IMG/VR virus record: IMGVR_UViG_2585427971_000012
Direction: 5' to 3' (one strand)
Source of the DNA: a virus
Taxonomy: Duplodnaviria; Heunggongvirae; Uroviricota; Caudoviricetes
Length of the DNA: 44,826 bases
Every line of letters begins with the position of its first letter. The stretch's first letter is position 1. Made by a program: the position numbers and the translations under genes. This document shows, in pieces, positions 27,243 through 35,824 of the stretch. The notes below the pieces were generated by a model. That model had not been told where the DNA came from. It saw only the letters and a list, made by a program, of their open reading frames with translations, and searched no databases.

Positions 27243-28545
27243 GCTTCACCTCCACAGAGGTCAGACGCTAGATGCAAAAAAACGCAGGTGCATTTCTGCA
27301 TCTGTGAAGGGAGAAGAGAGTTTGGATTGTGTGTGCGCATAAACGTCCCCGTTTAGCGCAGAAGTCACCGGAGTTGTTCAGGCTCCGGTGATACAATTAT
27401 GGCGAATTGATTATTCATAATCAAACAAGATAAGGTCTCAAACTTCATGCAAGCCAAGATTTATTTCTGACAGAATTATACAAAGAAGCTATTGGTCAGA
27501 ATCTACTCGGACTGTAAAACATACGCATAACCTTAAGCTCTCACTTTAAGCATTGTTGAAATAATAGCCGTCAAGTACAACCTTAACCACGACTGGGATA
27601 TTTCCCTGGCTACCACGAGTTGTACGGCTATTAAACTGCCGTTAAATTTAGTAAGAGAATTTCATCCGATAAGTCAAGGCATGTAAAACATGAAAATTAA
27701 CAAGATATTATCATCTGCAACACTATTGTATGGTATGTCAATGGCCATGTCGGTCGGGAGTTGTGCAACACCTGTCCAGACTAATCTTCCTGGTTACACC
27801 CCGGGTGCAGATATCATTAGTGTTTCACCGACCAGAAACCAGGTCGATCTCATTGGTGATGTTGTTTATTCCCAGATAAAAGGAACTCGTTCTGTCAGAC
27901 AGCTTCACATGTCAGTTCTTGTCCCGCGAACAAATGATTTAAAACCAGCCATTATTTATTATCCCGGCGGCGGATTCATGTCTTCTGAACATGACAAATT
28001 TATTGAAATGAGAATGGCTCTGGCAGAAGCTGGTTTTGTTGTGGCCGCTGTAGAATACAGAACAATTCCTGATACATTTCCAGCACCAGTTGAGGATGGA
28101 AAAGCTGCAATACGTTACCTGAGAGAGCATGCCAGCAATTATGGGATTGATCCTCAAAGAATCGGAGTTCTGGGTGACTCTGCCGGTGGATGGCTTGCCC
28201 AGATGATGGGAACTACAAATGGTGACAAAACCTTTGATAAAGGTGACTTTCTTCAGCAATCCTCAGATGTTCAGGCAGTTGCCACACTTTATGGGATTTC
28301 TGACTTGTTGAATATTGGCGAGGGGTTCCCTGAATCAGTGCAGGAGGTTCATCGCTCTCCTGCCGTAACCGAAGCCTTAATGATCAATGGCCCTGCATTC
28401 AGAAATTTTGCGGGAGCCCCCATCACAGCGTCAAAAGAAAAAGCGCTAAACGCCAGTCCAATCGGACATATGAAAGGAGTAAAACCCCCATTTCTTATTA
28501 TGCATGGTAGCAAAGACACTCTGGTTTCACCTGAGCAAAGCGCCA

Positions 28546-28553
28546 AACTATTC
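28546..28553. repeat. Target-site duplication, left copy (AACTATTC)
   Basis: Exact 8-bp direct repeat abutting the IS left end; IS66-family elements make 8-bp TSDs. Confidence 0.8.
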
Positions 28554-28638
28554 GTAAGCGTAAACTGACCGCCGTATGTAGCCATCAGACGAGAATTGGT
28601 AACTTAGACGCCCATCTGATATAGACGGACATCTAAGT

Positions 28639-34300: not shown

Positions 34301-35575
34301 GCCTCTGTTATCCTGTACTGTGGCTCCAACATTCCACGAATTTACACCTTCGCTTTTATAAGCCGGTAAAGTGATCTGCCATGATGTGCCATTTCCACTG
34401 ATCTTGCCGCCAGCCGCAGTGAATGCACTATCATTCCACTGTACAGACTTGATACCACCACTAGCATTGTTGATTGTCAGTGTTACAGGGATGATTGATT
34501 CCCCCTCCCCCTGAACAGACTCTGGCAAACTGATTTTCAGTGCATGCTTCTTCTTGTACTCCAGAACAATGTTGTTATTTCGTTCAACAAAATCATAACG
34601 CCGGTTCTGGACTTCTCGCATAACTGCAACATTATCGCTGCTAAGCTGTTCAGCCAAGGAAACGCCCGGGCGATAATTAAACTCAACACCAAAGGTTGTA
34701 TCGTGAGTGTTGCTCTGTCCTTGCTTATGCTGTGCAGAAAACTTAATCAGAGGAACTGGTGTATAAGAAATTCCCCCAGTAACTGCGTAAGGGTTTTCCT
34801 GCAGGTTATCGCTTCCAAATAACCCGACATTTTTACCATAATATTTTTCAAACTGAATAGATGCCCCTAATTGCGGATAAGCAGGTAGCCATCCTTCAGC
34901 AGAAAAATCCCAGCCATTTGCAGGTCTTTCCAGATAATCATCAATATCACGACTGTTCTTCCAGTCAGATAGACCAAAATAGGTATTTACACCAAGCCTG
35001 AAATAATCCCTCCAGTACTCAACCCCAAAACCTGCACGAGAGTGACTACGACTTAAATCGTAATCATAGAAAACATTCGCACCCAACATTGCGTTATCAG
35101 GAGTGAAATGACGAATCCCCAAACCAATATTGGTCTGATTTCGGTCATCAGTACGATGTAGTGATGTCTGACTGAATAACACATAATCCTGAGTATCCAG
35201 CCATGGATATAAAAAGTCGAATGATGAATCCTTCAAGGAAAAAGAATCATCGACATTAAGCTTGATGCGCGCATTGCCATATTGTTGCAACCAGTCGACG
35301 ACCTCTTTTGTCGCCTGAGTTGATAAAGTATTTACAGCAAAACTACTTGCATTATTATTCGCCAGGCTCTGACCTGCACTTGCTGCAAATGAGGCCACTT
35401 TATTTGCATGCTCATCGCTGGCATAAATTTGCGTAACATCTTTATTACCAGATGATGCAAAACTGTTTGCTGGGATCAAAGAAAGAGAAACTGGAGATAA
35501 TATCTGGGTAACAATTACCGACCATGTAATCGCGCCAGATGCAGTTTTTTTTAACTTTTTATTCACAGTGGTCAT
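31310..35575 (-). CDS. Intimin/invasin-family inverse autotransporter adhesin (1421 aa) with a long array of Ig-like (Big) domains
   Basis: Signal peptide; N-terminal beta-barrel with motifs shared with intimin as recalled (YDYDLSRSHSRAGFGVEYWRDYFRLGVNTYF, ERPANGWDFSAEGWLPAYPQLGASIQFEKYYG, RYDFVERNNNIVLEYKK); then about 1000 aa of Thr/Ser/Val-rich repeated domains. Confidence 0.85.
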   Translation of the reverse strand: MTTVNKKLKKTASGAITWSVIVTQILSPVSLSLIPANSFASSGNKDVTQIYASDEHANKVASFAASAGQSLANNNASSFAVNTLSTQATKEVVDWLQQYGNARIKLNVDDSFSLKDSSFDFLYPWLDTQDYVLFSQTSLHRTDDRNQTNIGLGIRHFTPDNAMLGANVFYDYDLSRSHSRAGFGVEYWRDYFRLGVNTYFGLSDWKNSRDIDDYLERPANGWDFSAEGWLPAYPQLGASIQFEKYYGKNVGLFGSDNLQENPYAVTGGISYTPVPLIKFSAQHKQGQSNTHDTTFGVEFNYRPGVSLAEQLSSDNVAVMREVQNRRYDFVERNNNIVLEYKKKHALKISLPESVQGEGESIIPVTLTINNASGGIKSVQWNDSAFTAAGGKISGNGTSWQITLPAYKSEGVNSWNVGATVQDNRGNVSNYAVMNISVTDSGVSTADSSFTLDGDSSPTISADSQSTYPIVLSLKDSNGKALTGLADDIEMSVEFTADSNSARQRETVTAPSLGAVEEISAGVYRSVLTAGSQAGTVRVTAKVQGKTFTLNIKQAAITDSDVSTADSSFTLDGDSSPTISADSQSTYPIVLSLKDSNGKALTGLADDIEMSVEFTADSNSARQRETVTAPSLGAVEEISAGVYRSVLAAGSQAGTVRVTAKVQGKTFTLNIKQAAITDSDVSTADSSFTLDGDSSPTISADSQSTYPIVLSLKDSNGKALTGLADDIEMSVEFTADSNSARQRETVTAPSLGAVEEISAGVYRSVLAAGSQAGTVRVTAKVQGKTFTLSIKQTATTEPDSEVSAVLTAAPAEQVVGYNINLQLAVKDSQGNAITGDNTLSFYALNQAEGVEFGTVTEKDGVYSATVTSKRAGKITIGVKSDSHDFSGVKKEITFIEDRQQVTFSQFEASQNNALADGKQRNMVTVSLADRFGNVVPGYAVTLSLPAGITQVGGEHAVSTDENGNAIFALISSTPGSYVITAHAGSQMSTELTVTFASNMTGASLSLTPESSSLISNIPANGKDAAVLDVQLTNTNASVNGQKIQLITSSEGLSVPTNIVTDSTGHVSVPLTTVKAGEYTVTARVTDGSHSVESGSVKLTFVPDVASAELNMSVSKQEIVADGSENATVNIQLVDANNNAFTGEVDLTITPSTGASLTSSNLQLDAHGQATTQFTASKSGQYTIQAEYVLDGKRITASQNIDAVTDVKGAVLEITSSASSAVVSDTNNLVFTLLLKSKSGEALSGRALNVKTSGPSKYGALVVDKTTVTTDENGQATVSVHGRTVGSYKLTATLNELGSDVSAVKSFSLYADDANGVLTLTKDPGYETNDGSPVGIYARFVDHFGNPLSGTVEFSAGSEDSPDSQRVKMEPATVTLHWTGNAASEFSTYESGYHWIKAKITNSKNTYEKTIRTYVVKLPEKDS
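33205..34270. repeat. Three near-identical tandem copies of a 357-bp unit (119 aa each) inside the adhesin gene
   Basis: Seen directly: sequence recurs at a 357-bp period with only a few substitutions (protein VSTADSSFTLDGDSSPTISADSQSTYPIVLSLKDSNGKALTGLADDIEMSVEFTADSNSARQRETVTAPSLGAVEEISAGVYRSVL[T/A]AGSQAGTVRVTAKVQGKTFTL x3). Boundaries approximate. Confidence 0.85.
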
Positions 35576-35824
35576 AGTTCAATCAACGTTATGAATATAA
35601 TGAAAAAAATAACTGGTATGACAAGAGGCGCGAAATATACAGCTCGTTACAAAAAAATCAACTCAAAAATAAAATAAAATCTCTGCATAAACTTTATGGC
35701 TAAATGATTTCACAACAATGGAAGAAAAATTTTGTTGCTCACGCAATCAATCATTTCGGGCGTTACAACTAGTCCTAGATTATATTCGCTAGGTATACTT
35801 TATTTTTAAGCTAATACTTTAGCT

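Follow-up and report, generated by a model that had tools for sequence, protein, structure and literature searches.

The genes P and Q on the minus strand of IMG/VR virus record IMGVR_UViG_2585427971_000012 (44,826 nucleotides, the whole stretch analysed here and referred to as the window) are separated by a large adhesin gene, a hairpin terminator and, on the opposite strand, an esterase gene interrupted by an insertion sequence (IS). Comparison with related phages and prophages indicated that this arrangement is probably a composite cargo assembled at a hot spot, and not one that specifically uncouples Q from the promoter pR. A sequence-only reading of the window had proposed that one 8.5-kb cargo module had taken the place of ren/ninB-D, and that it might have uncoupled Q from pR.

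The minus-strand genes follow the order cro-like, YdaT/cII-like, O, P, adhesin, hairpin, ylcH-ybcN-ninE-ybcO-rusA-ylcG-Q, and the interval between the hairpin and ylcH carries, on the plus strand, an alpha/beta hydrolase (esterase) gene and an IS66-family element (Table 1). The order from P through the adhesin, the terminator and the opposite-strand esterase and IS to ybcN and Q had been correctly described in the sequence-only reading, but the single module resolved into three independent pieces, namely an inverse autotransporter (IAT) cassette, an older antisense esterase gene and a copy of ISEc23 within the esterase. The ren gene is indeed missing, along with emrE-ylcJ-ybcK, relative to the nearest phages, whereas ninB was not replaced, since YbcN is a NinB/Orf homologue (PMC4118853); ninC and ninD were absent from the nin regions examined in DLP12, 4A7 and the PhiR phages.

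The flanks of the cargo are common, at 97–98% identity, to the window and phages 4A7, Lambda_4C10, 1W, 3W, Perceval, D2 and PhiR47_2. Inspection of the annotation of 4A7 and PhiR47_2, two records deposited as complete phage genomes with laboratory hosts (E. coli C, K-12), revealed the order P-ren-emrE(qacE)-ylcJ-ybcK, hairpin, intact antisense esterase and ylcH-ybcN-Q. The LR5958xx phage records are presumably those of Mathieu et al. 2020 (PMC6969025), plaque-purified on indicator strains; the phage names are absent from the main text of that article. The 4A7 hairpin differs from that of the window (AGCCCGCA-UAAG-UGCGGGCU, approximately –18 to –20 kcal/mol) and is followed by the same CUUUUUACAGG tract on the pR strand, and neither N nor a put RNA was found in 4A7 or PhiR47_2. 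Since both phages combine co-directional cargo, an equally strong terminator and an antisense esterase with the lack of N and put, the adhesin cassette adds no new kind of barrier between pR and Q. By this comparison, the slot is a cargo hot spot of an ordinary sort, the arrangement gives no clear sign that the phage is broken, and the case for uncoupling is weakened; inducibility itself lies beyond sequence data.

The joints of the cargo were placed by the same comparison. Homology of the 4A7 type is lost just before the end of P and is regained from the stop codon of the esterase onwards (TAAAAAG), and matches across the junction were divided between those covering only the esterase, which end at query position 484, and those covering only the adhesin, which begin at 478. 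These alignments show that the adhesin cassette replaced ren-emrE-ylcJ-ybcK, with joints at the last P codons and at the terminator U-tract. The same slot holds an acyltransferase and a lipoprotein, an antisense PD-lambda-1 and Rha, or Rha alone in other phages, and emrE-ylcJ-ybcK-ybcL-ybcM in the K-12 prophage DLP12. Phages with different cargo all regain homology at 27425, approximately 85 nt upstream of ylcH. The stretch from P to the nin genes was shown to be a hot spot for cargo, with a conserved recombination linker on each side, namely the P/ren end and a block of about 180 nt upstream of ylcH, the latter carrying a promoter-like element and a structured leader. In PhiR26_1 (locus L007, 9110-9181 (-)) and in loci L016 and L063, two copies of this element, the leader and a ylcH-like start flank the cargo (Rha, others), and the doubled block is consistent with its acting as a recombination linker for cargo exchange.

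The adhesin cassette, of approximately 4.5 kb, consists of an AT-rich upstream region, the IAT gene and its own hairpin terminator. The intimin/invasin-type beta-barrel domain PF11924 occupies residues 57–334 of the protein (E 5.6e-101), N-terminal to the passenger, and comparison of the barrel with PDB entries retrieved invasin (4e1t, E 1e-73) and intimin (4e1s, E 7e-63), while the passenger contains seven Invasin_D3 and five Big_1 stretches. The adhesin scored below every named NCBIfam equivalog cut-off (388 against 2400 bits for the IatC N-terminus, 318 against 999 for SinH) and falls, by NCBIfam, outside the named E. coli groups intimin, IatC, SinH and YchO; neither LysM nor C-type lectin domains were detected in it. 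The base composition of the 31–36 kb region (GC 0.40–0.46) deviates from that of P/O (0.53) and of the nin genes (0.52). The upstream region, which accompanies the cassette in strain 097H6, contains two matches to 9 of the 12 promoter consensus positions, a kind of match found at chance level regionally, as 17 promoter-consensus matches occurred across 24500-40500 against 22.4 expected.

The hairpin at 31278-31298 was the best terminator-like site within 24.5–40.5 kb, with 9 pairs, 7 of them G-C, and approximately –15 to –18 kcal/mol. It is followed on the minus strand by the tail CUUUUUACAG, and, because the U-tract comprises only 5 U, the efficiency of this predicted terminator is uncertain. 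The sequence-only reading had described a strong-looking bidirectional terminator; the site headed the terminator scan on the minus strand, and on the plus strand the hairpin comes after the esterase stop with a poor U-tract. A lambda-immunity, N-positive prophage of strain 097H6 bears the same cassette at 94.8% identity, with a 1302-aa adhesin. In that prophage the cassette adjoins P on one side and the ylcH block on the other, the hairpin and CUUUUU are the same, and the esterase is absent. The presence of the hairpin after the adhesin where the esterase is lacking therefore indicates that the terminator belongs to the cassette and that the cassette moves between phages. The P-adhesin junction was found in 557 of 5426 complete E. 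coli genomes (about 10%), many of them ST131.

ISEc23 lies inside the esterase gene, flanked by an 8-bp target duplication, AACTATTC (28546-28553, 31086-31093), and its proteins matched the Pfam families HTH_Tnp_1, TnpB_IS66 and DDE_Tnp_IS66, in agreement with the IS66 family. The reconstructed IS-free site was recovered as one unbroken match in 431 complete E. coli genomes carrying both IAT and esterase, ST131 strains included; therefore, ISEc23 is a recent polymorphism. The esterase is older than the adhesin in this phage lineage, and the slot was filled in the order of an antisense esterase already present, then the adhesin cassette, and later, in a subset of strains, ISEc23.

Table 1. Features of the window bearing on the interval between P and Q and on the pL side.
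Feature	Position	Strand	Remarks
ylcH-ybcN-ninE-ybcO-rusA-ylcG-Q block	25152..27340	-	ylcH 27239-27340; ybcN 26787-27242; Q 25152-25841, phage-82 type (95.5% identity to the phage 82 record X92588)
Two-hairpin leader, conserved	27335..27390	-	hairpin 1 (HP1) 27390-27366; hairpin 2 (HP2) 27359-27335
Conserved promoter-like element	27396..27424	-	TTGATT, 17 nt, CATAAT; TTGAT-N8-ATCAA palindrome over the –35 hexamer and spacer
Esterase (BD-FAE alpha/beta hydrolase), 5′ part	27690..28553	+	intact gene in relatives 1044 nt (347 aa)
ISEc23 (IS66 family)	28554..31085	+	tnpA, tnpB, transposase; ends GTAAGCG...CGCTTAC
Esterase, 3′ part of interrupted gene	31094..31273	+	
Intrinsic terminator of adhesin cassette (predicted)	31272..31298	-	stem GGGGAGGGC/GCCCUCCCU, 3-nt loop UUA, then CUUUUU
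Inverse autotransporter (type Ve) adhesin gene	31310..35575	-	1421 aa; IAT beta-domain and Big_1/invasin-D3 repeats
Adhesin upstream region, AT-rich, 249 bp	35576..35824	-	two sigma-70-like sites (35661-35634, 35624-35597); presumed cassette promoter
P, replication gene	35825..36526	-	4A7-type homology ends about 3 codons before the stop (near 35833), the left cassette junction
boxA, exact rrn-type 12-mer (GCUCUUUAACAA)	38123..38134	-	13 nt past the cro-like stop; nutR-equivalent position
pL (inferred)	39462..39490	+	TTGACG, 17 nt, TTAAAT; among CAACAAC operator repeats common to the pR region
kil leader segment	39717..39740	+	GCGCAGAAGUC-UCUAUA-UGUUCAG; complements the ylcH-leader 11-mer and HP1 loop (27381-27356 (-))

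The 8.6-kb stretch matched E. coli chromosomes at 99–100% identity, many of the matches being O25b:H4-ST131, and in strain AZ148 it lies in a prophage of approximately 50.3 kb with icd at one side and an icd′ fragment at the other. The window holds an icd-integrated, lambda-like prophage of approximately 50 kb, a kind that is common in ST131-type E. coli. The AZ148 prophage contains int-xis, exo-bet-gam-kil, an S24 repressor, a YdaS-like cro, a YdaT-like cII, O, P, a phage-82-type Q, lysis genes, iss, lambda-like head and tail genes, and sitABCD. Only the esterase and the side tail fibre gene are annotated as pseudogenes, the other early, late and lysis genes being annotated intact. The side tail fibre gene appears as two pseudogene fragments (locus L132, 5525-7546; window ~1-2000), and the prophage end beside the icd′ fragment carries sitABCD together with a 771-nt hypothetical gene.

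In the context of Q expression, the earlier reasoning was sound in that a pR transcript must cross the adhesin gene and a good intrinsic terminator, without N, to reach Q; beyond the hairpin, it also reads approximately 3.9 kb of antisense sequence (esterase and IS) before arriving at ylcH-ybcN-Q. The reported lack of a recognisable N gene was likewise borne out, as no N-sized open reading frame (ORF) lies between the repressor gene and kil, none of at least 50 aa being present between 39172 and 39684, and the pL leader runs into kil with no N gene between; RefSeq annotates N in 097H6 and none here. A nut arrangement of boxA and boxB at both pR and pL was not found, boxA occurring on the pR side only and with no neighbouring hairpin. 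The fold of the pL leader was unremarkable (z = –1.6) and included no boxB hairpin, and the search for a pL-side boxA or a repeat common to the pL and pR leaders returned only the operator repeats. A covariance model for put-like RNA (HK022 putL and putR, HK639 putL) recovered its training sequences only; its best match in the window (17.6 bits, 37351-37424 (-)) lies inside gene O, is missing the invariant put bases and was judged to be due to chance.

The boxA 12-mer on the pR side is the sole exact copy in the window, where such a sequence would be expected about 0.005 times per 90 kb of two-strand sequence, and it lies approximately 300 nt into the pR transcript, so that a consensus boxA stands early in a long operon, as in boxA-only antitermination. 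It is also present in PhiR47_2, PhiR26_1 and PhiR5_1, and missing from 4A7 and PhiR30_1, whose cro differs. In CRISPR arrays, a boxA by itself is sufficient to recruit Nus factors and to prevent termination by Rho (PMC7665894), an action that would fit the long antisense stretch, which is untranslated. A lambda-like boxA string (UGCUCUUAACC) also occurs on the transcribed strand within the adhesin coding sequence (33042-33052 (-)), probably by chance.

The most likely course of expression is as follows. In the lysogen, the adhesin would probably be expressed or silenced from its own promoter, its transcripts stopping at the hairpin, and after induction pR transcripts would read into the cassette. 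Q could then be supplied by partial read-through of the terminator with its short U-tract, in which case boxA could recruit host Nus factors and shield the long untranslated antisense RNA from Rho, or it could be supplied from the promoter-like element, with its structured leader, that immediately precedes ylcH-ybcN-Q and would be off in uninduced cells.

Several observations weigh against this interpretation. The adhesin was found in none of 50,697 isolated phage records, so that phages bearing it can be taken as viable only by analogy. The side tail fibre gene is annotated as a pseudogene. ISEc23 adds 2.5 kb of antisense untranslated transcript to the path from pR. The lack of boxA in 4A7 means that boxA is not the general solution, and boxA-only antitermination has little effect on intrinsic terminators. 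The K-12 prophage DLP12 has the same promoter-like element sequence as the window, and Cappable-seq data from uninduced K-12 contained no start in 571,200-571,799 (U00096.2), where one was expected at approximately 571,542; plus-strand starts in DLP12 were those of emrE (567,514) and ybcL (570,094). Similarly, DLP12 rusA is silent and needs IS-supplied promoters (PMC4118853). The promoter-like element is not constitutively active.

The sequence-only reading had also suggested an internal promoter within 27243-27689, and a conserved –35/–10 pair was in fact found at 27424-27396, although the DLP12 copy has no detectable start in uninduced K-12. Given the chance-level frequency of promoter matches across the region, this site gains weight from conservation only. 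In a comparison of approximately 30 distinct upstream contexts, conservation sets in sharply at TTGAT(T) (27424-27419), that is, exactly at the –35 hexamer, returns at AATCAA and continues at (C)ATAAT (27401-27396), with both hexamers invariant at 17-bp spacing. As binders of the palindrome, FNR was rejected by eye on spacing and Fur on sequence. Downstream of the element, the first hairpin presents the loop CCUGAACAA followed by the invariant GACUUCUGCGC, its stem varying in phi80, 097H6 and other loci with pairing kept, while the loop of the second contains the Shine-Dalgarno GGGA and its stem includes the ylcH AUG; the second hairpin, too, shows several compensated variants. In 30 distinct leader sequences, 95.4% of cells were paired, against 26–43% when partners were slid by 1–3 columns, changes on both sides affected 11 of the 18 pairs, and none of 500 shuffles reached the observed values, figures somewhat inflated by the fitting of the alignment to the model. 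Rfam contained no family for either leader alone, and a scan of 24–41 kb rose above noise only at a sub-threshold isrJ match downstream of Q (25057-25136 (-), 30.4 bits against 37 required, E 0.033); this match, just downstream of Q, overlaps a strong terminator-like hairpin at 25084-25058 and probably corresponds to the short, terminated RNA made from the late promoter pR′. Within ylcH, the 3′ half (TCACAGATGCAGAAATGCACCTGCGATT...) is nucleotide-invariant between E. coli phages, phi80 and HK639, the 5′ half being divergent, and the invariant part can fold into a 9–11-bp hairpin just before the ybcN start, which suggests an RNA-level constraint beyond coding.

The leader motif CUGAACA-N8-GACUUCUGCGC has a second copy inside the 5′ region of kil, on the same DNA strand, at 42 loci; therefore, the sense pL/kil RNA is complementary to the ylcH leader over 11+7 nt. 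The Klebsiella phage KO-TP1 keeps the 11-mer despite a 2-nt deletion that changes the reading frame, which argues for a nucleotide-level constraint. In HK225, the complementarity was lost with no compensating change, no compensatory changes between the two motif copies were found across the 42 loci, and the energy of the duplex between the ylcH and kil leaders was no better than that of shuffles (56 of 500 were as good). Pairing of the two leaders is put forward as a hypothesis based on the exact sequence matches. Near this segment, AUGACAACCGGCGGCCAUCCACCGCC with a hairpin GGCGG/CCGCC (39690-39709 (+)) stands at the start of the 96-aa kil ORF and is near-identical in the window, HK225 and KO-TP1, with flanks that diverge between the three.

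These features raise a possible, if somewhat doubtful, alternative in which the supply of Q is independent of pR read-through, a regulated promoter at 27424-27396 with its operator-like palindrome and leader controlling ylcH-ybcN-Q, perhaps by base-pairing of its leader to that of kil in the pL transcript, so that upstream cargo would be irrelevant to late-gene timing. Besides the invariant hexamers, the sharp onset of conservation, the covarying leader hairpins and the complementarity kept in KO-TP1, this alternative is favoured by the second copy of the element before another cargo set in PhiR26_1 and by the lack of a known antitermination device in 4A7. It is opposed by the silence of the element and of rusA in K-12, by the uncompensated loss of complementarity in HK225, by the lack of covariation between the copies and the shuffle-level duplex energy, by the model-fitted alignment behind the covariation and by the lack of a candidate regulator. 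A broader version, that many lambdoid phages, N-positive or N-less, carry an undescribed Q-gating unit made of a palindromic promoter, a two-hairpin leader (HP1 loop YUGAACA, invariant GACUUCUGCGC, HP2 with the ylcH start codon) and possibly kil-leader pairing, appears quite unlikely; if it were true, upstream cargo would be harmless, which would explain the use of the slot as a cargo hot spot even in N-less phages.

Uncoupling of Q from pR by the cargo, with the terminator and approximately 3.9 kb of untranslated antisense RNA halting essentially all early-right transcription, the late genes unable to be switched on and the prophage reduced to a grounded carrier of the adhesin, iss and sitABCD, is unlikely. 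The barrier is real in topology. In favour of uncoupling are the strong predicted hairpin on the pR strand, the lack of N and of put RNA, the extra antisense length contributed by the IS, the silence of the ylcH promoter-like element in K-12, the absence of the adhesin from the isolated phages searched and the pseudogene state of the side tail fibre gene. However, the same topology in 4A7 and PhiR47_2 weakens this explanation, as these phages, deposited with laboratory hosts, have the same terminator position and U-tract, the antisense esterase and no N. Moreover, the remaining early, late and lysis genes of the prophage are annotated intact, hundreds of genomes retain the arrangement, which also persists in another phage background that has N, and stf is also defective in laboratory lambda. 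Searches of the literature for inducibility of the ST131 prophage, and for the PhiR phages and 4A7 under their names, gave no usable result.

Finally, a cryptic N-like protein, of which this prophage would be an amber mutant, is very improbable, since the arginine-rich N-terminus (VKRTRERRCDQLK) in frame with kil in PhiR47_2 and PhiR30_1, although resembling the lambda N arginine-rich motif, encoded by the first ORF after pL, fitting a boxA at the nutR position and interrupted here by TAG at 39657-39659 (+) where those phages have CAG, is not conserved in HK225 and KO-TP1, belongs to a protein whose PHROG and Pfam matches are confined to the C-terminal Kil part, shows no third-position bias in the leader substitutions and has no boxB hairpin beside boxA or within the pL leader. 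The evidence that the upstream kil extension is translated is weak.

Besides iss and sitABCD, the prophage encodes a large adhesin that is uncharacterised, and both the portability of the cassette, present in at least two phage backgrounds, and the question of whether the carrier phage can still move bear on the spread of a putative colonisation factor. The comparison shows that lambdoid phages lacking N can accommodate terminators and antisense genes in the interval from P to Q, which makes the conserved, unstudied promoter-like element and leader before the nin-Q operon a place to seek late-gene timing in such phages.

The arrangement is a moron at a lambdoid cargo hot spot, a well-known kind of feature. 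As in lambda bor, lom and rexAB and in DLP12 emrE-ybcK-ybcL-ybcM, the cargo has its own upstream region and terminator and a deviant base composition, and it is inserted between genes that are adjacent in relatives (in 4A7 and the PhiR phages, ren comes next after P), in the slot of DLP12 emrE-ybcK. It differs from these in being a 4.3-kb IAT cargo that precedes Q within the early-right operon of an N-less phage, and in its absence from the isolated phages searched. The adhesin shares the PF11924 barrel and the Big_1/invasin-D3 repeats with intimin, invasin, FdeC, YeeJ, IatA-D and SinH, but it is prophage-borne, whereas six IATs studied sit at fixed chromosomal positions in the strains examined (PMC6714894).

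Similarly, the exact boxA lies where lambda has nutR, as in the lambda N/nut and rrn boxA systems, but N, boxB and nutL are lacking, and boxA-only action has been documented against Rho and not against intrinsic terminators (PMC7665894). N-less lambdoid phages are known, and HK639 also has the block upstream of ylcH; the two-stem put RNA of approximately 70 nt in HK022 and HK639 has no convincing match here. The silent rusA of DLP12 provides a further parallel, as the K-12 ybcN-rusA operon needs an added promoter (PMC4118853). In lambda, terminators between P and Q (tR2-tR4/nin5) make Q conditional, as the hairpin would in this prophage, with the difference that here the terminator belongs to the cargo cassette and not to the phage backbone.

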